A stretch of 64,000 nucleotides of DNA, from positions 1,537-65,536 of the forward strand of contig JAGQZY010000003.1 in the NCBI GenBank assembly GCA_020435205.1, given 5' to 3'. Made by a program: the position numbers and the translations under genes. How positions within the stretch are numbered: the stretch's first letter is position 1; each line of letters opens with the position of its first letter. Source of the DNA: Bdellovibrionales bacterium (lineage in GTDB: Bacteria > Bdellovibrionota > Bdellovibrionia > Bdellovibrionales > JAGQZY01). Of the stretch, positions 2,390 to 24,271 are shown piece by piece. The notes beneath the pieces were generated by a model that was not told where the DNA came from, ran no database searches, and saw only the letters and a list, made by a program, of their open reading frames with translations.

Positions 2390-2526
2390 GTTTCTCCGAA
2401 AGGAGATGGATACCCTGTTCTTGCAGAACGTCCATATTTGAAACACTCCCCCCCTAAGACGGTTGTCGAGTATATCGGCAGCCGTCAAATTTTTTCCGGC
2501 CAATTCAAAGCTTTTGACAATAGAGG

Positions 2527-2542
2527 TGGCACCTCGTTTGCT
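2527..2542 (+). promoter_or_regulatory. Sigma-54 (RpoN) -24/-12 promoter candidate with no annotated downstream gene
   Basis: TGGCAC-ctcgt-TTGCT is a full match to TGGCAC-N5-TTGC(A/T). It lies in the 360-nt gap between the 980..2389 gene and the convergent flagellin gene. Confidence 0.6.
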
Positions 2543-2552
2543 CTATTAGAAA

Positions 2553-2750
2553 TGAGTGGGAGAAGGAGTGCGGGTCGGGGGGCCTAAAAATTTTCTTCAA
2601 GAAAGACAAACATGAGGTTGGCGAGTTTGTCTTTCTGCACTTTCCTTTTCAATTTTGCTTTTGTTATCGATCTTAATAGAGTCGTCTGGCTTTATTAATG
2701 ACCCTCTTGTTTCACCGGGGCACCCAATGGTTGGGTGCCCCAAATTTTTT
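2553..2750 (+). ncRNA. Candidate sigma-54-dependent small transcript (sRNA or mRNA of a 28-aa hydrophobic micro-ORF at 2612..2698)
   Basis: It is bracketed by the sigma-54 promoter (TSS expected near 2552-2554) and a strong plus-strand intrinsic terminator (2717-2750). There is an internal 11-bp hairpin, agaaagacaaa (2600-2610) paired with tttgtctttct (2636-2646). No ORF of 60 aa or more is present. Confidence 0.3.
2717..2750 (+). terminator. Rho-independent terminator, plus-strand orientation
   Basis: Perfect 11-bp stem GGGGCACCCAA/TTGGGTGCCCC with loop tgg, followed by aaaTTTTTT. The U-tract exists only on the plus strand and overlaps the flagellin stop codon (2749-2751). Confidence 0.7.
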
Positions 2751-3582
2751 AACCTAATAACTTCAGTGCTAAGTTGGGAATGCTATTGGCTTGACCAAGC
2801 ATAGAAACGCCTGCTTGGAGAAGAATATTCTGTTTTGCAAGCTCTGCTGATTCTTCGGCCACATCGGTATCTCTAATACGGCTATTCGCTGCAGATAAAT
2901 TTTCATGCGTCGTATTAATATTATTAATAGTTGCTACTAGACGATTCTGTAGGGCGCCAAAATTGGCGCGCATGGAGTTCACTTTCACAATCGCCTCGTC
3001 AATCACACCTAGAGACAGTTGTGCACCCTGTTTGCTTGAAATGTTCTCAGCAGCAACACCGAGCGAGGTGAGAGTGGCATTTGCGGCTGTGGAATCAAAA
3101 GCAATACGATCATTAAAAGGATCATTGTGGACGCCGATTTGAAACTCAAGAACCCCGCCGAGGCCACTCAAAAGGGGGGTGCTATTAAACTCAGTGACTT
3201 CTGCCACTCTCTGAATTTCGTTTTTCAATTGTTGGAACTCGACGTTGGTAAAAGTTCTTTCGGTGTTACCCACGGTGTCTGAAGCCGCTTGGATCGATAG
3301 CTCGCGCATGCGAATGAGCATGTTACCAATTTCACCGAGACCACCTTCGGCGACTTGCACCATGGAAATGCCATCGCTCGCGTTTCTGTTCGCCTGCTTT
3401 AAACCTCGTATTTGGGCTCTGAGGTTTTCTGATATGGCGAGGCCAGCAGCATCGTCAGAAGCTTTGTTGATGCGGTATCCAGAACTCAAGCGCTCTAGAG
3501 ATCTCATCATATTGAGGTTCGTATTAAACAACTGTCGCTGTCCATTAATGGAGGGCAAATTGGTTGCTATACGTAATGACAT
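2749..3582 (-). CDS. fliC: Flagellin (short type, 277 aa)
   Basis: MSLRIATNLPSINGQRQL...DDAAGLAISENLRAQIRGL...ANFGALQNRL...AANSRIRDTDVAEE...LLQAGVSMLGQAN are conserved flagellin N- and C-terminal domains. The start is moved to the ATG at 3580-3582; the ORF-track start at 3666 would add 28 aa in front of the export N-terminus. Confidence 0.95.
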   Translation of the reverse strand: MSLRIATNLPSINGQRQLFNTNLNMMRSLERLSSGYRINKASDDAAGLAISENLRAQIRGLKQANRNASDGISMVQVAEGGLGEIGNMLIRMRELSIQAASDTVGNTERTFTNVEFQQLKNEIQRVAEVTEFNSTPLLSGLGGVLEFQIGVHNDPFNDRIAFDSTAANATLTSLGVAAENISSKQGAQLSLGVIDEAIVKVNSMRANFGALQNRLVATINNINTTHENLSAANSRIRDTDVAEESAELAKQNILLQAGVSMLGQANSIPNLALKLLG

Positions 3583-16695: not shown

Positions 16696-17088
16696 ATGGC
16701 AGACATCTTTGAACTACTAAAAGAGAAAAATTATTACCTTGAGCGATTTCTTCAAGAATCAAGGAAAGAAAGACAAAGCTTCAAGGCCAGACGATTTGAT
16801 AATTTAGAGCCTTTGTATAAGAAGAGGGAACAGATTCTGGCTAATATATCGAGTATTGATGTGCGAATTTCAAAAATTTGCGAAGAAGCCAAAGACGAGA
16901 TTCTCAATGGTCCAGGTAAAGATGAAATCAGCAAACTTTTAAAGAAGATTAAGGACAATGTTCGCTACATAATGGAAGAGGATCTAGAGATTATCTCTTG
17001 TATAGAAAATGAAAAGTCCAAGATTATCAAAGAAATTTCACAGACCAAGGAAGGGCGCAGAGTCCTTAGAGGTTATAAAGCGATTTAG
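16696..17088 (+). CDS. Hypothetical helical protein, possibly a FliT/FlgN-like flagellar export chaperone
   Basis: 130 aa, predicted all-helical and charged, immediately after fliS and before the operon terminator. The function is inferred from position only. Confidence 0.35.
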   Translation: MADIFELLKEKNYYLERFLQESRKERQSFKARRFDNLEPLYKKREQILANISSIDVRISKICEEAKDEILNGPGKDEISKLLKKIKDNVRYIMEEDLEIISCIENEKSKIIKEISQTKEGRRVLRGYKAI

Positions 17089-17164
17089 ATTTTAGGGTCA
17101 AAAAAGTGACATTGACCTTAAAATATTGGCGGCTAAGCCCAACCCTTGTCTAGCCATTTTCTAA

Positions 17165-17192
17165 AGCCAGATCCCTATCTGGCTTTTTTTTT
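17165..17192 (+). terminator. Rho-independent terminator ending the flaG-fliD-fliS operon
   Basis: AGCCAGAT-ccct-ATCTGGCT followed by a run of 9 T. Confidence 0.85.
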
Positions 17193-17214: not shown

Positions 17215-17230
17215 TGGCACCAAGCTTGCT
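17215..17230 (+). promoter_or_regulatory. Sigma-54 (RpoN) -24/-12 promoter candidate
   Basis: TGGCAC-caagc-TTGCT is a full consensus match. It lies 25-38 nt upstream of the ATGs at 17256 and 17268. Confidence 0.65.
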
Positions 17231-17267
17231 TATTAAAAATACGAAGAACTGATTTATGAGGTGCCCC

Positions 17268-18080
17268 ATGGAAACCAACTTTGAAAGTATTCCTTTAACC
17301 CATACTAATGTCGATAAATTTAGCCAAGATATAATGGGTGAGATGAATTCCTGTATTAATGAAAAACAATTTAGTAAAGCAGCTCAAATTGCTAAAAATA
17401 ACATAGAGAAGATGGCAAAAAACTCGTCTTTTTTAGTCGTTGCCGCTAGAGCCTTTAAAGCGAACCAAGACTATAAGACTGAGGCAGAGTGTCTGCACAT
17501 GTTGGTTTCCATTGATCCTCAGCCTCGCTACCAGATTTTGCTTGCTGAATCCTTGTCGGCACAGGGGGATTTCCCTTCAGCGATCAAGGTTCTGCATCAA
17601 GTCTTGGATGAAACGCAAGGAGCGACAGCCATACTTTTTGAAGTTTATAAAAATATGGGCAACATATATTTAAAGTGCGGAGATATTGAAGCGGCTGAAG
17701 AAAAATACCACAAAGCTAATCGTATCAATCCTAACGATGAAAGTCTTAACATCAACTATGGTGTCCTTGCTATTCAAAAGGGCCTTTACGAAGAAGCTAA
17801 GGAGCGATTTTCTATTGTGGTGTGTGCTAACGGAAAAAATGATCTGGGTTGGGTCGGATTGGCTTTAGTGCACAGAGCCCATGGTGATTTTGATCTGGCG
17901 AGAGCTTGCTTACTACGTGCTCTTGACGAAAACCCATTTAACAAGATGGCGATTATTCATTTCTACCAGTGGTGTAATGAAGAAGACATTGAGCCGAACT
18001 TTGCGATGGCCATGAATTACATGAGTGCTTTCCCTGACGATATTGAAATCCAAAAACTTGTCAAAGGGATGAATAACTAA
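17268..18080 (+). CDS. TPR-repeat protein
   Basis: Repeated A-x3-Y/F-x2-A-x3-P-type 34-aa units, for example GNIYLKCGDIEAAEEKYHKANRINPND and GLALVHRAHGDFDLARACLLRALDENP. The ATG at 17268 has the SD GAGGTG 4 nt upstream; the ORF-track start at 17256 lacks one. Confidence 0.8.
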   Translation: METNFESIPLTHTNVDKFSQDIMGEMNSCINEKQFSKAAQIAKNNIEKMAKNSSFLVVAARAFKANQDYKTEAECLHMLVSIDPQPRYQILLAESLSAQGDFPSAIKVLHQVLDETQGATAILFEVYKNMGNIYLKCGDIEAAEEKYHKANRINPNDESLNINYGVLAIQKGLYEEAKERFSIVVCANGKNDLGWVGLALVHRAHGDFDLARACLLRALDENPFNKMAIIHFYQWCNEEDIEPNFAMAMNYMSAFPDDIEIQKLVKGMNN

Positions 18081-19444
18081 TGGCTGCTCTTATCCCGCAA
18101 GTTCATCTTATTATTTGCATGGACCCGAGGGTTGCGCCAGGCCCAGTTCTTCATGCACTTGACGTCTTGCGAGCCAAAGAATGGCAGACTGAAACAGTTT
18201 TGGTTTGTGATCTGTCCTGGAAAAAGTATATTAGCGCAGAACAATCAGCTCTTTATTTGGATCGCAAACAATTTTTTCACTCTGACTTTGTTGGAACCAA
18301 AAATGAGATAGTCAAGGTGGATGCCTTAGAGGACTTTCTAGCAAAGCTTGATGACTTTGAGATCACCCAGCTCACACAGGTTGGCGAATTGAGTTGGGGG
18401 CGTTGGCTGCAAACTTACTTTGACGAAGAAGAAATCGAGAAGAAAAAGCATATTGAAGTTCGCGTTGGTGATGTCGCTGCGATTGAGGTCGCCAATCAAC
18501 TGGCAGAGGGCTTTAATATCGATCTTGCTGAAATGGTTAAAATTAATACCAAATCAGATACAATCTATATTGATCCCTACGTAGAAGGGGAAGTCAGTAC
18601 AAAGTTTATGCACTGGTTGGATAAAGAAAAAGTGAATCTTCCTGAATGGTGTAATGTCATTTGCAATGAAGAAGATAAGGCTTCCTTTGAAGCGATGGGC
18701 TTAGAGGAAAACCTTATTGTTGAATCCGAAATTGATGCCCACCTATTTAATCAAGGAGTGGTTGTTTTTGATGAAGATTCTCCCTTCGCACAAGCCAGTC
18801 GATCTTTTAATGTCGCTTATTGCAGCTTTTCTGAAATAAAAAATCCTAAGTGCATATATATTCCAGGTGATATTGCTTGCGCTATTGAAGATGACCTTCA
18901 TTGGGTGGAGTTCCTTAATCTTCTTACCTACTGGAAGAAGGGGCGCCTCCGTGAATTGGCATTTCAGTGGAACGAAATGCCAGTTTCTATACAGTTGGTC
19001 GAGGGCTTTGGCTACAGAATGAGCCTCAAAAGCCTCAATGAGTATTCTAGTGACCTTATTATTTGTAAATCCGTGGTGGCTAGTTATACCAGTCACCAGG
19101 GGCCAATCAAAGAGAGGGATGTGATTGAGCTGCATAGGTCACTCATGAAGACGGTGCACAATGACCCCTATCTCATTTCGTTTTCTATCAAGCTCTTAAT
19201 AATGATTGCTGAGCGCATGATTGCTTCAGCGTCCCAGGGGGAGCGTCTTTTTCAAAGGCTCGGCAGCGACTACCATCGGATTGTTGTCGGAGAAGCTCTT
19301 GTTGAAGGAATTATTGAATCAAAGTCAAAAAATTACAAAGAAATCAATATTCATGATTGTTTGAAATCCTTTCATCAATATTTGATGAAATTGGACTATT
19401 ATAATGATCAATTAGATTCTAATACTGCATATAGGGAGTCCTAA
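18080..19444 (+). CDS. Hypothetical cytoplasmic protein (454 aa), no recognised family
   Basis: Long ORF translationally coupled to the TPR gene by a TAATG overlap at 18078-18082. It has no signal peptide or TM segment and no motif I recognise. Confidence 0.7.
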   Translation: MAALIPQVHLIICMDPRVAPGPVLHALDVLRAKEWQTETVLVCDLSWKKYISAEQSALYLDRKQFFHSDFVGTKNEIVKVDALEDFLAKLDDFEITQLTQVGELSWGRWLQTYFDEEEIEKKKHIEVRVGDVAAIEVANQLAEGFNIDLAEMVKINTKSDTIYIDPYVEGEVSTKFMHWLDKEKVNLPEWCNVICNEEDKASFEAMGLEENLIVESEIDAHLFNQGVVVFDEDSPFAQASRSFNVAYCSFSEIKNPKCIYIPGDIACAIEDDLHWVEFLNLLTYWKKGRLRELAFQWNEMPVSIQLVEGFGYRMSLKSLNEYSSDLIICKSVVASYTSHQGPIKERDVIELHRSLMKTVHNDPYLISFSIKLLIMIAERMIASASQGERLFQRLGSDYHRIVVGEALVEGIIESKSKNYKEINIHDCLKSFHQYLMKLDYYNDQLDSNTAYRES

Positions 19445-19447
19445 ATC

Positions 19448-20119
19448 ATGGAAAAAGTTGTTGTTAGCCAACAAACTCATCCGGCATTCTTTCGTCAATG
19501 TAAGAGCTTGGGTCAACTCATTGCTTGCTTAGAAAAGATGGGCGAAAAAGACGACCAGTACATTGTTAAAATCCTTTTGAATGGGCGCAAACTCGACAAT
19601 GACGAAGAACAATTGTTAGAAAGTCTATCTATCAATGAGGTCGATGAACTTGCTGTCCACTTTTCCTCTATAGATGAAATCACGGGAAAAACCATGATTT
19701 CAATCATAGGATCTATCCAGGATATCCAGCTTAATGTTATTAAATTTACTAAAGAGTTTCGTGGTGCCGACCAGATTGATGATGAGAAATTAAAATTTAT
19801 CCTCATCCAGTGCCGAGGTGTTATCGAAGGCTTGGAAGAGATATTTAAAACTCATAGTTCTGGAAAGTTGATGCTCAAGCACTTCTCCTTGTGGGTCGAA
19901 GCCGAAAAGGAGTTGACCAATATCCTGCAGTGCATCTTACAGAGCCGTAGCCTGAATGATGTGGAGTTTATTTCGGATCTACTAGAGTTTGATCTAGTTC
20001 AGGCACTGTCTCTCTGGGAGGAAGTGTTGGAAAAAGAAATGCACGATAGTCCAACCATATCGCAAATTTTTAGTTTGAATAGTCGACTTGATGGCAGCGA
20101 TAATGGGGTGGATGTCTGA
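19448..20119 (+). CDS. Hypothetical cytoplasmic protein (223 aa), no recognised family
   Basis: ORF 3 nt after the previous stop; acidic and helical. Its 3' end overlaps the kinase gene. Confidence 0.7.
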   Translation: MEKVVVSQQTHPAFFRQCKSLGQLIACLEKMGEKDDQYIVKILLNGRKLDNDEEQLLESLSINEVDELAVHFSSIDEITGKTMISIIGSIQDIQLNVIKFTKEFRGADQIDDEKLKFILIQCRGVIEGLEEIFKTHSSGKLMLKHFSLWVEAEKELTNILQCILQSRSLNDVEFISDLLEFDLVQALSLWEEVLEKEMHDSPTISQIFSLNSRLDGSDNGVDV

Positions 20120-22124
20120 TCAAACCTTATCCAACAATGTAGACCAAAAAGATATTTTATGGATCTGTGAAGAGGGGACGTCTGACGATCGCTGCACGAC
20201 CGCAGCGTCCGAGTTTGGACTAGTGAAACAAGCTTGTCGGTGGGCGGACATTGACTCTTTGGTGAGTTTGGACAACTGTAAAATACTGATCTGCAATCTA
20301 GTAAAAGATCACTTTACTGAAGAATTTTCTAAACTTCAAAAGTTGCAGCAACTTTCACCAGCTTCGGTCACCATCGTGCTTTCCCATGGGCTTGATATTG
20401 ATGCCATTAATTTATTGATCAATGAGATGCATGTGTTTGCGATATTGCAGCCCAATGAGAACCTAAGGGTTTTTATTCAGAAGGCTCTAGAGGCTTACAC
20501 GGACAAAAAGCAATATATATCGGCTCTTGGCAAAATAAAGAAGCAAAACCGGCAGCTTGAGGAGCTCAATGAGAATCTAGAATCTCTTGTACATGTCAGG
20601 ACAAAAAAAGAATTTGAGGCCAATCAAAAAGCTCTAGAATCTTTAAAGAGCATGCAAAGTCTTTTAAAATTTATTAAAATAGTCTCGCGGTCCGATACCC
20701 TTGAAGATCTTATGATAGCGGTAAGGGATGATTTTAAAAAGTTTCATGGTTTACGCCCTCCGATTCTTCTTTTTACAGAGAGTCAAAATCGCTTGAGAGT
20801 TTACTATTTTCAAGGGAAGCAGTTGACCAGTCGAAACAACAATCACGATGAAGTGGGAAAGCTTTTTGAAAAAGATAATGCCCCAACAATTCGAGGAGAG
20901 CTTAGCAATTTATTCGGAAGACCCTTTGGTCCTATTGAGGTATCGAACCTCAGTTTTCAATCGGAAGAACTTCAATCGGTGGGTGCCAAAATAATATGTG
21001 AACACTCTTTTGATAGTAAAAATCTCGATGATTTTTTTCAGTTCTCCTTTGAACGTTGGTCCATCATAAATATGGCATTAGAAAATATTCTATTGCAAAA
21101 AAGCTCTAAAGATATCGCTAGGCAGTGGGCTCGGACGTTTAATGAGATGAAAGACCCAATTATTATTATTGACCACCATTACCGGATGACTTTGTCCAAT
21201 GGCAATTTTCATAGGCAACAGGATCAGTTTTGTTATCAAGCCTTTGCCCAGCGCGACAGCCCTTGTTTGGACTGTCCTATTCAGAAAACCTTCGAAAAGG
21301 GGGGGGCTCAATATTCAGATATTCATTGTTTAGGTAAAGTTTTCCGGGTTCATTCCTATCCGATTCGACTTGACGGAGGTGAGCAAGTTTCCCACGCTAT
21401 TAATCAATATGTCGATATTAGTCAGTCCGTCGATTTGCAAAGTCGAGTGATACAGGGTGAAAAAATGGCAGCCATTGGCTTGCTGGCGGGTAATATTGCT
21501 CACGAGCTCAATAACCCCTTAACTGGAATTTATTCCTTAGCGGGTTTGCTCTTAGAGGATATCGAGCAGGGGACAAATACTTATAAAGATTTACAAGAAA
21601 TCCGTGATGCTGCTCACCGCTGCCAAATCATTATTCGCGACCTCCTCGATTTTTCTTCGGTGGGGGCTGATTCAAAAGTTCTAGAAGTGAATGCTAACGA
21701 GGTCATTCGCAAAACCCTTCCTCTTTTAAAAATGTCTATGCGAACCCATAATTGCGATATTCATCTCTCTGAGGATGAAATTCTGATTAGAGTGAATCCT
21801 CAATTGCTTCAACAGGTCATCTTCAACCTTGTTAACAATGCTTGTCAGGCTATGCATGAGGGGGGCAGCTTGAGTGTTTCCTGTGCAAGGAAAGAGGATA
21901 TTTGCCAGATTCGCATTTCTGACACGGGGCCGGGGATTCCTGAAGACCTAAGAGAATTGATCTTTGATCCCTTTTTTACTACTAAAGATGAAGGTAAGGG
22001 AACGGGTTTAGGGCTTAGCATGAGTCGCTCGGTCATTGAAAGGTTTGATGGCCGCTTAAAATTAGTTGAGAAACAAAATCCCGGAGCCGAGTTCCTTATT
22101 GAGTTTCCGGTGGTGAAAAAGTGA
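20088..22124 (+). CDS. Cytoplasmic sensor histidine kinase with receiver-like N-domain, coiled coil and Cys-rich PAS-like domain
   Basis: H-box IAHELNNPLTGIYSL, N-box VNNACQAM, G-boxes DTGPGIPEDL and GTGLGLSMS. No TM segments. Possible starts are TTG 20088 and ATG 20091, 20103 or 20112; the last is coupled to the upstream stop. Confidence 0.9.
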   Translation: MMAAIMGWMSDQTLSNNVDQKDILWICEEGTSDDRCTTAASEFGLVKQACRWADIDSLVSLDNCKILICNLVKDHFTEEFSKLQKLQQLSPASVTIVLSHGLDIDAINLLINEMHVFAILQPNENLRVFIQKALEAYTDKKQYISALGKIKKQNRQLEELNENLESLVHVRTKKEFEANQKALESLKSMQSLLKFIKIVSRSDTLEDLMIAVRDDFKKFHGLRPPILLFTESQNRLRVYYFQGKQLTSRNNNHDEVGKLFEKDNAPTIRGELSNLFGRPFGPIEVSNLSFQSEELQSVGAKIICEHSFDSKNLDDFFQFSFERWSIINMALENILLQKSSKDIARQWARTFNEMKDPIIIIDHHYRMTLSNGNFHRQQDQFCYQAFAQRDSPCLDCPIQKTFEKGGAQYSDIHCLGKVFRVHSYPIRLDGGEQVSHAINQYVDISQSVDLQSRVIQGEKMAAIGLLAGNIAHELNNPLTGIYSLAGLLLEDIEQGTNTYKDLQEIRDAAHRCQIIIRDLLDFSSVGADSKVLEVNANEVIRKTLPLLKMSMRTHNCDIHLSEDEILIRVNPQLLQQVIFNLVNNACQAMHEGGSLSVSCARKEDICQIRISDTGPGIPEDLRELIFDPFFTTKDEGKGTGLGLSMSRSVIERFDGRLKLVEKQNPGAEFLIEFPVVKK

Positions 22125-22486
22125 AAGTATTGATTGTTGATGATGAAAATCTAGTGAGGCTGTCCCTGCAAAGGGCTTTTGAAAAGGCTGGCCATGAAGT
22201 TCAGCTGGCAGAAGACGGTCGGCAAGGTATTGAGCTTTGGCGGAGTTGGCAGCCCGACTGTGTCGTCCTGGATGTGCTCATGCCTGAACACAGCGGACCC
22301 GAGGTCATTCAGGAGGTTCAGCCCTCCGAGAAGGTTGCTATCATATTGATTTCTGCCTTTTCTGGAGAATATCAGGCCGACTCGGTCAAACAATTAGGGG
22401 CGGATCTTTTTATAGCGAAGCCATTTGAAGATATTAAAGACGTGGTCGTTCAAGCTCAAGCTCTTTACCAAGGGAAATCTTCTTGA
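22121..22486 (+). CDS. Single-domain (CheY-like) response regulator
   Basis: MKVLIVDDENLVRLSL...DCVVLDVLMPEHSG...FIAKPF. 121 aa, receiver domain only. A GTGA overlap couples it to the kinase gene. Confidence 0.9.
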   Translation: MKVLIVDDENLVRLSLQRAFEKAGHEVQLAEDGRQGIELWRSWQPDCVVLDVLMPEHSGPEVIQEVQPSEKVAIILISAFSGEYQADSVKQLGADLFIAKPFEDIKDVVVQAQALYQGKSS

Positions 22487-23025
22487 GGGTGATTGGTGGT
22501 AAATATGGTGGCCGAAAGTTGGTTTCTTTTAAGGCGGACAACATTCGTCCCACTACGGACAGAGTTAAAGAAACTATTTTTAACAAATTACAATTTATTA
22601 TTGAAGGCGAACCCGTGTTGGACCTGTTTTCGGGGACGGGAAGCCTAGCCATTGAGGCCTTGTCTCGAGGAGCTAATCGTGTGGATGCTGTTGAATCCCA
22701 TCCGAAGTCTCTTGCTGTCATCGAAAAAAACAAAAGTCTATTTGAGATTGGTGACGAGCTCAAGGTTTATAATATGGACGTCTTTCGCTATCTCAAAAAG
22801 GCAGAAAGTTCTTACCCGATTGTGCTTATTGATCCCCCTTTTACCAAGCGTATAGCTAACGAAGTTCTTGCTGCCCTTGCGGAGTCAAAAGTCCTCGCTG
22901 AGGGCACTGAAGTTTTTATAGAATCCAGTGCCAAAGAAAGTGTGGCTGAGGCCTATGGGCAGCTTGAGCGTAAGCAACATAAAAGTTTTGGGGACAAATT
23001 TTTGTCCCATTACATTTTTGGTTAA
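22483..23025 (+). CDS. rsmD: 16S rRNA (guanine966-N2)-methyltransferase RsmD
   Basis: MRVIGGKYGGRKL...RPTTDRVKETIFN...LDLFSGTGSLAIEALSRGA...VLIDPPF. Confidence 0.85.
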   Translation: MRVIGGKYGGRKLVSFKADNIRPTTDRVKETIFNKLQFIIEGEPVLDLFSGTGSLAIEALSRGANRVDAVESHPKSLAVIEKNKSLFEIGDELKVYNMDVFRYLKKAESSYPIVLIDPPFTKRIANEVLAALAESKVLAEGTEVFIESSAKESVAEAYGQLERKQHKSFGDKFLSHYIFG

Positions 23026-23074: not shown

Positions 23075-24271
23075 ATGTTGTCAAAGCGAATGCAACAACT
23101 GAAACCATCCCCAACTCTTGCCCTGGCTGCAAAGGCAAAAGAGCTGAAATCTCAGGGGAAGGATGTTATTTCACTCACTGTTGGCGAACCCGATTGGCCC
23201 ACATATGGGGCGGCCAAGGAGGCTGGCATCCAAGCGATCCATGAAAATAAAACCACCTACACTCCTGCTGCGGGTATCCCAGAGCTACGCAAGGCTGTCG
23301 CTCAACTCATTGGGAAGCAGCTGGCTATGGAGGTCAGTCCTCAACAAGTCACCATTGGTTCAGGGGCAAAGTTTATAATTTATACTGCATTCACCGCCCT
23401 TTTAGATCCCGGCGACGAAGTGATTGTTCCCTCGCCTTATTGGGTGAGTTATCCGACTATGGTTGAATTGGCAGGTGGAACTCCTAAAATTGTGGAGTGT
23501 GATGCTCAAACCCACTTTAAGCTCAGTGGACCTCTTTTGAAATCGGCCATCACCGAAAAAACAAAAATTCTTCTTTTAAACTCTCCCTCTAATCCAACGG
23601 GGGCTGAGTATTCCCATGCCGAATTGGATGCATTAGCGGAAGTGTTAAAAGAGTATCCGAACCTCTGGATTGTGAGCGATGATATTTACAACCAGCTTTC
23701 TTTCCATCCTGGCGGCTTGAGCCCCCATTTGCTTCACAAGAATCCCGAGCTCAAAGAGCGCTGCATTTCTATTAACGGTATGTCCAAGGCCTATGCCATG
23801 ACAGGTTGGCGGATGGGCTGGGCTGTAGGGCCAGAAGCTGTGATTAAGGCCATGGCCAGTTTTCAAAGCCAAACCACAGGTGCTCCCTGCTCGATCTCCC
23901 AGTGGGCATCTTTGGCAGCCATCACAGAAACGGCTGACGAGGTTAAGGAAAGCTTAGTGGCCCTTCAGGAGCGCCGTGAGCTTTTCATTAAACTCCTTAA
24001 TGGGGTTCCAGGGTTGCAGGTTTTTCCTCCTCAAGGAGCCTTTTATCTTTGGGTTAAAGTTCAAGATTGGTTGGGTAAAACCTACAAGGGAAAAACTCTT
24101 GTCGACTCTAAGCAGTTGTCCCAAATCTTGCTCGAAGATGTCTTGCTTGCCGTTGTGCCAGGGGCGGAGTTCGGGACCGAAGGCTATTTGCGCTTGAGTT
24201 TTGCAGCCAGTCCGGAAGATCTGAAAAGGGCCAGTGAGCGATTAGCTAATTTTCAACAGCAACTCTCTTAA
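23075..24271 (+). CDS. Class I/II pyridoxal-phosphate aminotransferase (aspartate aminotransferase-like)
   Basis: SLTVGEPDWPT...YTPAAGIPELR...NSPSNPTG...NGMSKAYAMTGWRMGW (PLP-binding Lys motif); 398 aa. Confidence 0.9.
   Translation: MLSKRMQQLKPSPTLALAAKAKELKSQGKDVISLTVGEPDWPTYGAAKEAGIQAIHENKTTYTPAAGIPELRKAVAQLIGKQLAMEVSPQQVTIGSGAKFIIYTAFTALLDPGDEVIVPSPYWVSYPTMVELAGGTPKIVECDAQTHFKLSGPLLKSAITEKTKILLLNSPSNPTGAEYSHAELDALAEVLKEYPNLWIVSDDIYNQLSFHPGGLSPHLLHKNPELKERCISINGMSKAYAMTGWRMGWAVGPEAVIKAMASFQSQTTGAPCSISQWASLAAITETADEVKESLVALQERRELFIKLLNGVPGLQVFPPQGAFYLWVKVQDWLGKTYKGKTLVDSKQLSQILLEDVLLAVVPGAEFGTEGYLRLSFAASPEDLKRASERLANFQQQLS

Follow-up and report, generated by a model that had tools for sequence, protein, structure and literature searches.

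A lineage-specific form of a Bdellovibrionales operon downstream of the flagellar filament genes, with a probable sigma-54 promoter and an orphan GT-B-like protein

This work concerns a gene cluster located directly behind the flagellar filament genes of a Bdellovibrionales bacterium (contig JAGQZY010000003.1); all coordinates refer to the window, the 64,000-nt stretch of DNA that was analysed. Downstream of a predicted sigma-54 promoter, the cluster encodes a tetratricopeptide repeat (TPR) protein, a 454-aa protein (U454) whose predicted fold is of the glycosyltransferase B (GT-B) type and closest to glycosyltransferase family 9 (GT9), a 223-aa protein (U223), a sensor histidine kinase and a single-domain response regulator, and it runs on into rsmD. 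Judging from gene order and orthology, the locus is a reduced, lineage-specific form of an order-wide Bdellovibrionales operon, represented in Bdellovibrio bacteriovorus HD100 by Bd0614-Bd0621. We lean towards an interpretation in which two modules are joined here, a sigma-54- and flagellum-dependent filament accessory (Module A) and a flagellum-independent two-component pair (Module B), a reading that we consider somewhat better than even.

Genes and features of the locus

The features of the locus, all on the plus strand, are given below in their order along the window.

16696-17088 (+): FlgN-like gene, 130 aa, final gene of the flaG-fliD-fliS unit (Pfam FlgN E 4e-8, FliT E 1e-3)
17126-17153 (+): conserved upstream block, TTGGCGG-N15-GTCTAG (genus alignment)
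17163-17192 (+): intrinsic terminator of the filament operon, a 10-bp stem then a T-run
17215-17230 (+): predicted sigma-54 promoter, -24 TGGCAC / -12 TTGCT (perfect motif match)
17268-18080 (+): TPR protein, 270 aa (TPR_2, TPR_14 and TPR_19, E 1e-16 to 1e-19); open reading frame (ORF) open from 17256
18080-19444 (+): U454, GT-B/GT9-like orphan with a helical tail (predicted fold)
19448-20119 (+): U223, alpha/beta domain plus four-helix bundle (predicted fold)
20103-22124 (+): cytoplasmic sensor histidine kinase (HisKA E 1e-13, HATPase_c E 1e-24); ORF open from 20088
22121-22486 (+): single-domain response regulator, 121 aa (Response_reg E 4e-24)
22483-23025 (+): rsmD, 16S rRNA m2G966 methyltransferase (TIGR00095, 141 bits versus a cut-off of 117.5)
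23075-24271 (+): class-I aminotransferase, ORF downstream of rsmD

The TPR and U454 genes meet in a TAATG (18078-18082), U454 and U223 are separated by 3 nt (19445-19447), and the U223 and kinase genes overlap by 17-32 nt, depending on the kinase start. Further downstream, the kinase/regulator junction is a GTGA at 22121 and the regulator/rsmD junction a TTGA at 22483 (4-nt overlap). The TPR start is more likely the ATG at 17268 than 17256, and a GAGGTG ribosome-binding site precedes the former. For the kinase, ATG 20103 is the most likely start because it yields the same 17-nt overlap with U223 as in two other loci (L001 and L003). None of the five proteins contains a hydrophobic segment (19-residue Kyte-Doolittle mean > 1.6). 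An earlier note, made from the DNA of this stretch, had listed a terminator, a perfect sigma-54 site, five tightly coupled genes and a run-on into rsmD, all of which are present, with 23 nt between the T-run and the sigma-54 site. The same note had let the filament operon end with fliS; the terminator is real, but the FlgN-like gene sits between it and fliS. This gene, which follows fliS in every locus compared and whose counterpart in HD100 is Bd0613, forms the upstream boundary of the locus.

Eight distant loci share the order flaG-fliD-fliS-flgN-like, sigma-54 promoter, TPR-slot-U223-kinase-regulator-rsmD-aminotransferase-DUF2802, where the slot is the position between the TPR and U223 genes. 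In HD100, Bd0614-Bd0621 occupy the same position after fliD-fliS-flgN-like with the same gene order, and the orthologs in common with our locus are TPR (Bd0614), U223 (Bd0619), kinase (Bd0620), regulator (Bd0621), rsmD, aminotransferase and DUF2802 (gene tags and annotations from PMC3627812 Table S1; fliD and fliS tags from PMC9140294). Their annotations read 'putative O-linked GlcNAc transferase' (N-acetylglucosamine) for the TPR protein, 'putative LPS biosynthesis' (lipopolysaccharide) for two proteins, hypotheticals, a sensor kinase and a response regulator (PMC3627812); our literature searches returned no functional study of Bd0614-Bd0621, which are annotated only. Unlike HD100, our locus carries in the slot a single orphan, U454, without detectable sequence similarity to the HD100 slot proteins, its TPR protein is shorter (270 aa versus 315-392 aa for the orthologs of other genera), and the regulator gene and rsmD share 4 nt, as throughout this genus, versus a gap of up to ~390 nt in other genera.

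The distribution of the two unknown proteins differs in depth. Of 301 Bdellovibrionales genomes, 133 encode U223, each in a single copy, and these cover 59 of 103 genera. U454 is confined to one GTDB genus, where each of the 13 genomes sampled has it (11 intact copies, a degraded one in G105 and one cut at a contig end in G109); it is found in none of ~288 other Bdellovibrionales genomes. The synteny of the unknown genes with the kinase pair, on which the earlier note had made its hypothesis depend, is genus-wide for U454 and order-wide for U223. In one congeneric genome (L009 11990-13697), an insertion of ~1.7 kb separates the kinase gene from the regulator gene; in the remaining loci these two genes overlap or are directly adjacent.

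The sigma-54 promoter and its surroundings

The sequence TGGCACcaagcTTGCT at 17215-17230 is one of two perfect sigma-54 matches in the window, with GG at -24 and GC at -12 at the exact TGGCAC-N5-TTGCW spacing. The 2.83-Mb assembly contains 25 matches to the strict motif TGGCAY-N5-TTGCW, versus ~5 expected. About 15 of these 25 matches are non-coding and lie ahead of genes, most of which encode secreted proteins; flgF/G-like and FliL-like genes are also found among those downstream of a match. The machinery is encoded in the same genome, with rpoN (Sigma54_DBD match, contig C33) and 12 enhancer-binding proteins (strong Sigma54_activat matches).

Comparative evidence bears on the promoter most directly. 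The element TGGCA[CT]-N5-TTGC[TA] is present in 19 of 19 intact loci, 11 of the genus and 8 of distant genera, at 27-65 nt before the TPR start; the HD100-type locus (L032) has it ahead of the TPR gene, as here. It persists in the 10 other loci of the genus, where neighbouring proteins are 38-60% identical, and in the 8 loci of other families, where U223 is ~20% identical. Because the -24 and -12 positions are conserved while the N5 spacer and the flanks vary, the sigma-54 promoter foreseen in the earlier note is very likely real. In aflagellate G105, the sole genome of this type whose (decayed) locus was scanned for a promoter, the element is absent.

The genus alignment of nine loci contains a single other invariant block, located ~85 nt before the -24 element, with the consensus TTGGCGS-N14-16-GTCnAG; distant genera display TGACG-N16-18-GTCAAA in the same place. 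This upstream block is a reasonable candidate for the binding site of an enhancer-binding protein. The terminator between the FlgN-like gene and the promoter is present in 2 of 18 loci, so that insulation from the fliS transcript is a local rather than a general feature.

Sigma-54-dependent flagellar tiers driven by enhancer-binding proteins are well established, with FlrA/FlrC in Vibrio, FleQ/FleR in Pseudomonas, FlgR in Campylobacter and Helicobacter, and FlbD in Caulobacter. Our locus resembles them by a -24/-12 promoter close to flagellar genes, a conserved upstream block and a FleS/FleR-like pair encoded in the genome. Unlike in these known tiers, the predicted regulon consists mostly of secreted proteins and includes few flagellar genes. 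In the 2013 work of Karunker, the flagellin genes reportedly use sigma-28. Literature searches gave no characterisation of sigma-54 control in Bdellovibrio-like predators. A precedent for a gene of the flagellin-glycosylation type under RpoN control is reported for Helicobacter pylori (PMC5368276).

Regarding the activator, a 651-aa paralog of the kinase is encoded directly upstream of the best-scoring enhancer-binding protein (484 aa) of the genome (contig C83:27335-30159, minus strand), and the same contig also carries flgF/G-like and FlgL-like genes. These two proteins likely form a FleS/FleR-type flagellar pair and are a candidate activator of the TPR-operon promoter. In one congeneric genome, an additional gene of 310 aa is located between the FlgN-like gene and the sigma-54 promoter (L001 5660-7230), flanked by several copies of a CCGAAAAAAGAACCTGGTACTTT-like motif, which may represent a repeat element or else serve in regulation.

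U454 and the slot between the TPR and U223 genes

In the eight distant loci, the slot contains a ~200-aa protein and two GT9-like proteins of 488-585 aa. Both GT9-like proteins of the HD100-type locus match Glyco_transf_9 (PF01075, E 5e-15 and 4e-18), and the alignments of the slot families retain the G-D (G12-D13) and G-D-S/T...H motifs of GT9 enzymes and end in long C-terminal tails. In the genus studied here, U454 fills the slot, the ~200-aa protein and both GT9 genes (~3.7 kb) being replaced. The flagellated sister genus g5 (L043/L044) has neither the GT9 genes nor U454 nor U223, and its slot (L044 10562-11635) holds one 357-aa protein between the TPR and kinase genes. We considered this protein as a relative of U454 or U223 and rejected both, since it is related to neither. 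The presence of yet another unrelated protein implies that the slot turns over repeatedly.

U454 is an orphan at the sequence level. It falls into ~24 clusters among 5.8 billion proteins, and a profile search for distant relatives returned 20 representatives among 1.84 billion, none of them annotated; one relative (P0074) adjoins a U223 homolog on a 2-kb contig. The absence of a recognisable motif in the 454-aa and 223-aa proteins, remarked upon in the earlier note, is borne out in that neither has a Pfam or NCBIfam match above the curated cut-offs. For U454, no Pfam or NCBIfam match appeared even at E values up to 5, the PF01075 hidden Markov model was not matched, and a profile search of the PDB gave no match.

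AlphaFold2, run on the 22-sequence family alignment, yielded a model (predicted local distance difference test, pLDDT, 84; predicted template modelling score, pTM, 0.72) with two alternating beta/alpha (Rossmann-like) domains at residues 1-318 and a helical tail at 319-448. A Foldseek comparison of the two unknown proteins had been proposed in the earlier note. The 8 best PDB matches of U454 are all GT9 heptosyltransferases (WaaC, WaaF and a Veillonella GT9; E 1e-4 to 2e-3), and the further matches are other GT-B enzymes, with a Foldseek probability of 1.00; U223 gave no significant fold match. The U454 model shares with WaaC and WaaF, its best structural matches, the two-Rossmann GT-B topology and the beta1-loop-helix start. 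U454 differs from these enzymes and from the protein-targeting TibC/BAHT family (PMC4358343) by the lack of a PF01075 match, an altered G-D and an extra helical tail of 130 aa. Because U454 sits in the same slot, has the same GT-B plus helical-tail architecture and finds its best fold matches among GT9 enzymes, we consider that it probably descends from a tailed GT9 protein.

The family is also under constraint as judged from its alignment: overall identity in the genus is no more than 38-46%, yet 75 positions never vary, and many of these are polar. Invariant residues in the Rossmann-like domains include D15, D28, R31, E38, D165, D199, R241, D264, E277, R289 and E292; among them, Asp15 is found near the end of beta1, and D264 belongs to an invariant G263-D264. 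The replacement of a GT9-type set by a protein that is recognised through structure prediction only calls for caution with annotation pipelines, which would label such genes functionless.

Loss of flagella, expression and competing interpretations

Bdellovibrio-like predators depend centrally on flagellar motility to hunt their prey, and naturally aflagellate relatives serve as natural experiments on the operon. Genome G105, of the same genus as our bacterium and 100% complete in 2 contigs, lacks flagellin, FlhA and FliS. In its locus (G105:C2, L040 9597-14362), the FlgN-like, TPR and U454 genes are truncated remnants and U223 is gone. Intact copies remain of the kinase (671 aa), regulator and rsmD genes, and their divergence does not exceed that seen in flagellated congeners. 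Four other genomes without flagellin or FliS, G008 and G020 (family f8) and G038 and G045 (family f7), encode intact kinase orthologs. The G008 locus reads flgN remnant-kinase-regulator-rsmD-aminotransferase and the G045 locus kinase and regulator only; no TPR, glycosyltransferase or U223 gene was present at these two inspected loci. Taken together, the kinase is intact and the TPR, glycosyltransferase and U223 genes are lost in five aflagellate genomes from three families, and the regulator is kept in the three aflagellate loci inspected (G105, G008 and G045). FliS is present in 131 of the 133 U223-bearing genomes, the two others being G158 (flagellins present, contig end near the locus) and G275 (81% complete, fragmented). 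Because the five aflagellate genomes keep only the kinase side and U223 co-occurs with FliS, the operon splits into a flagellum-bound and a flagellum-independent part: on gene content, the TPR, glycosyltransferase and U223 genes are useful only with a flagellum, and the kinase pair is independent of it.

Published expression data for HD100 point to a similar division. Values were taken per gene, in reads per kilobase per million (RPKM), for attack phase / growth phase at 3 h (Karunker et al. 2013, PMC3627812 Table S1). They amount to 53 / 24 for Bd0613, 6.3 / 4.8 for Bd0614, 4.4 / 1.7 for Bd0615, 8.6 / 8.1 for Bd0616, 7.3 / 4.9 for Bd0618, 25.6 / 56.2 for Bd0619, 8.2 / 40.0 for Bd0620 and 9.6 / 200.7 for Bd0621 (PMC3627812). 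Expression falls eight-fold past Bd0613, which speaks against strong read-through out of the filament operon, and proximal genes that are nearly silent at both times would fit a sigma-54 promoter firing in a narrow window. The distal genes are induced in growth phase and must be served by one or more separate promoters.

The composition of the kinase pair corresponds to what the earlier note had described, a cytoplasmic kinase (no transmembrane segment) with a lone receiver as its partner. In the kinase, a pseudo-receiver, a coiled coil, a conserved domain and a region with four Cys precede HisKA and HATPase_c, which are confined to the last 215 residues; HisKA contains AHELNNPL. The N-terminal ~140 residues match solved receiver domains by profile (E 1e-9), and the acceptor position varies among N, Y, Q, D, E, C and H; the domain is termed a pseudo-receiver because the acceptor Asp is not conserved. 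The four-Cys region aligns to a PAS_4 domain detected in the HD100-type ortholog (L032). In the 121-aa regulator, the receiver residues D7, D8, D51, S78 and K100 are all present. Because the two genes overlap in a GTGA and are adjacent order-wide, we infer that their products are a cognate pair in phosphotransfer. The best PDB and NCBIfam matches of the regulator are a mixture of OmpR-type, CheY and Spo0F receivers, and its single-domain architecture is that of CheY. No che genes lie near the regulator gene, and its retention in aflagellate genomes speaks against a function confined to the flagellar motor. We also considered the regulator as a decoy of the receiver of an enhancer-binding protein and rejected this, as the genome offers no close paralog of it (best match 35% identical).

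U223 is the least certain piece of the operon. Its AlphaFold2 model (pLDDT 86) consists of an alpha/beta domain (1-74) and a four-helix bundle (75-199), and a fold search retrieved generic four-helix bundles at E 0.035 or worse, none significant. Weak precomputed Pfam matches on its relatives are PF27299 (TP0873_N) and PF26154, and a literature search on TP0873 returned nothing. In the loci compared, its gene is always immediately ahead of the kinase gene. A histidine phosphotransfer (HPt) domain was rejected for U223, since its sole invariant His (H145) is invariant in the genus only and replaced in other genera. The pattern of loss places U223 in Module A; the overlap and the expression values leave room for a protein that may bridge both modules.

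The model that we favour thus combines two modules. Module A would extend from the promoter through the TPR, U454 and U223 genes and act as a filament accessory, probably one that glycosylates the filament. An enhancer-binding protein, probably bound at the ~85-nt upstream block, would activate sigma-54 transcription. The TPR protein would most likely be a substrate-binding adaptor, and U454 a transferase or the degenerate descendant of one, with U223 as a helical-bundle partner. The likely substrate would be flagellin, or some other protein exported late in flagellar assembly, and it would be dealt with in the cytoplasm prior to export. In Module B, the cytoplasmic kinase, with its pseudo-receiver and PAS-like region, would phosphorylate the 121-aa receiver for a job independent of flagella and probably related to growth phase, with at least one additional promoter. 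The data themselves show the gene arrangement, the conserved promoter, the synteny, the pattern of losses across the phylogeny and the HD100 expression pattern; for the rest of this scheme we infer the glycosyltransferase activity, its substrate, the acting enhancer-binding protein and the phosphotransfer.

The closest known parallel is FlmG of Caulobacter crescentus, in which a TPR domain binds flagellins and a GT-B domain glycosylates them (PMC7591256). In architecture and context, the likeness lies in cytoplasmic TPR and GT-B modules, a flagellar setting and several short (~275 aa) flagellins, and Module A could be seen as a split version of the same TPR plus GT-B logic. Unlike FlmG, which is one polypeptide, the TPR and GT-B-like proteins are here encoded by two genes coupled by a TAATG; the GT-B part is, by its predicted fold, GT9-like with a helical tail.

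Several observations weigh against this model. The TM-scores of U454 in Foldseek are modest (0.34-0.54), and its canonical GT9 G-D reads G-P/A/V (G21). Comparison of U454 with the two slot GT9 families by hhalign was non-significant (E 0.11-0.14); with distant members added, the best values were E 0.0019 and 0.0013 at a probability of 14-18%, in weak alignments that are N-terminal and in register. A sequence-level proof of U454 as a GT9 enzyme was accordingly rejected, with Pfam, NCBIfam, PDB profile and hhalign all non-significant. The operon contains no dedicated sugar-nucleotide genes. The U223 and kinase genes overlap tightly, by the same 17 nt in L001 and L003, and Bd0619 is expressed at an intermediate level, both of which would suit a U223 that belongs to the kinase side and not to Module A; in addition, the flagellated genus g5 does without U223. 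Finally, we know of no flagellin glycan in any Bdellovibrio and, to our knowledge, nothing has been reported on filament modification in Bdellovibrio-like predators.

Among the alternatives, the one that survives best is a single sigma-54-driven signalling module of all five genes, as the earlier note had proposed, with the TPR protein, U454 and U223 as input or accessory proteins of the kinase; we hold it to be unlikely. Under this model, U454 could for instance sense a nucleotide-sugar and U223 gate the kinase, and the receiver would act through protein contacts on flagella or on the attack/growth switch. It is favoured by the translational coupling along the whole unit, by the conserved 17-nt overlap and order-wide adjacency of U223 and the kinase, and by the rise of Bd0619 in growth phase along with Bd0620 and Bd0621; in addition, the canonical GT9 motifs are missing in U454, and a ligand-binding pseudo-enzyme is conceivable. 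It is opposed by a kinase that is intact without TPR, U454 and U223 genes in five aflagellate genomes (regulator in the three loci inspected) and without U223 in the flagellated g5, by the very different expression of proximal and distal genes in HD100, by the predicted GT-B/GT9-like fold of U454 and by slot proteins that are, in other genera, ordinary-looking GT9 enzymes with catalytic motifs. The associated idea of a link to flagellar or life-cycle control holds on its flagellar side for the first three genes only, and a life-cycle role, if any, would fall to the kinase pair.

It is quite improbable that this genus has lost the glycosylation function, that U454 is a catalytically dead relic or a scaffold, and that it is kept with the TPR protein and U223 as a non-enzymatic chaperone or assembly factor of the filament. 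A single GT-B-like protein is left where relatives have three proteins, the G-D and G-D-S...H motifs of GT9 are unrecognisable in it, and it evolves fast (38-46% identity versus 75-85% for FliS); against this stand the 75 invariant columns, many polar or charged in the Rossmann-like domains, and a U454 that is full-length in the 11 of 11 flagellated genomes of the genus with an assessable locus.

We likewise give little credence to a bolder view in which the operon is a checkpoint coupling completion of the filament to the predator cell cycle. Sigma-54 would fire filament modification late in flagellar assembly, with sugar transfer in this genus by a new, sequence-orphan branch of GT-B enzymes; U223 would signal the condition of the cytoplasmic flagellin or glycosylation pool to the kinase with its pseudo-receiver and PAS-like region, and the lone receiver would act on growth-phase or attack-phase targets. 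U223 is translationally coupled to the kinase and lost only together with flagella.

An envelope function, with GT9-like proteins attaching a sugar, heptose or a different one, to lipid A-core destined for the membranous flagellar sheath typical of Bdellovibrio, is suggested by GT9 being classically the LPS heptosyltransferase family, by WaaC and WaaF as best folds of U454, by the annotation of Bd0616 and Bd0618 as 'putative lipopolysaccharide biosynthesis' and by a co-loss with flagella that fits a sheath-specific function equally well, but it is very doubtful given the pairing of the enzymes with a soluble TPR adaptor, long helical tails absent from WaaC/WaaF, a location in the fliD-fliS-flgN chaperone/cap neighbourhood and not among LPS core genes, the lack of membrane-association features, and the existence of protein-targeting GT9-like enzymes, the TibC-type autotransporter heptosyltransferases (PMC4358343).

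Under the two-module model, the individual parts are of known kinds, and the points of interest are the sequence-orphan GT-B-like protein and the clean comparative separation of the two halves: naturally aflagellate relatives set a flagellum-dependent module of glycosyltransferase type apart from a flagellum-independent kinase and regulator. Besides, a conserved sigma-54 promoter and a candidate site for its activator are now delimited ahead of the operon that is Bd0614-Bd0621 in HD100, and this operon is directly testable in laboratory strains.

The second perfect sigma-54 match of the window, TGGCACctcgtTTGCT at 2527-2542, lies in the intergenic region 2459-2752 (+) that follows a 469-aa gene and faces the 3' end of a flagellin gene on the minus strand. 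No ORF of at least 50 aa was found downstream of this site, and the region has no Rfam match. About 40-70 nt upstream of the site is a GACGG-N21-GTCAAA that recalls the block found ahead of the TPR operon in distant genera. With a hairpin and a terminator-like stem inside it, the region could encode a sigma-54-dependent small RNA.

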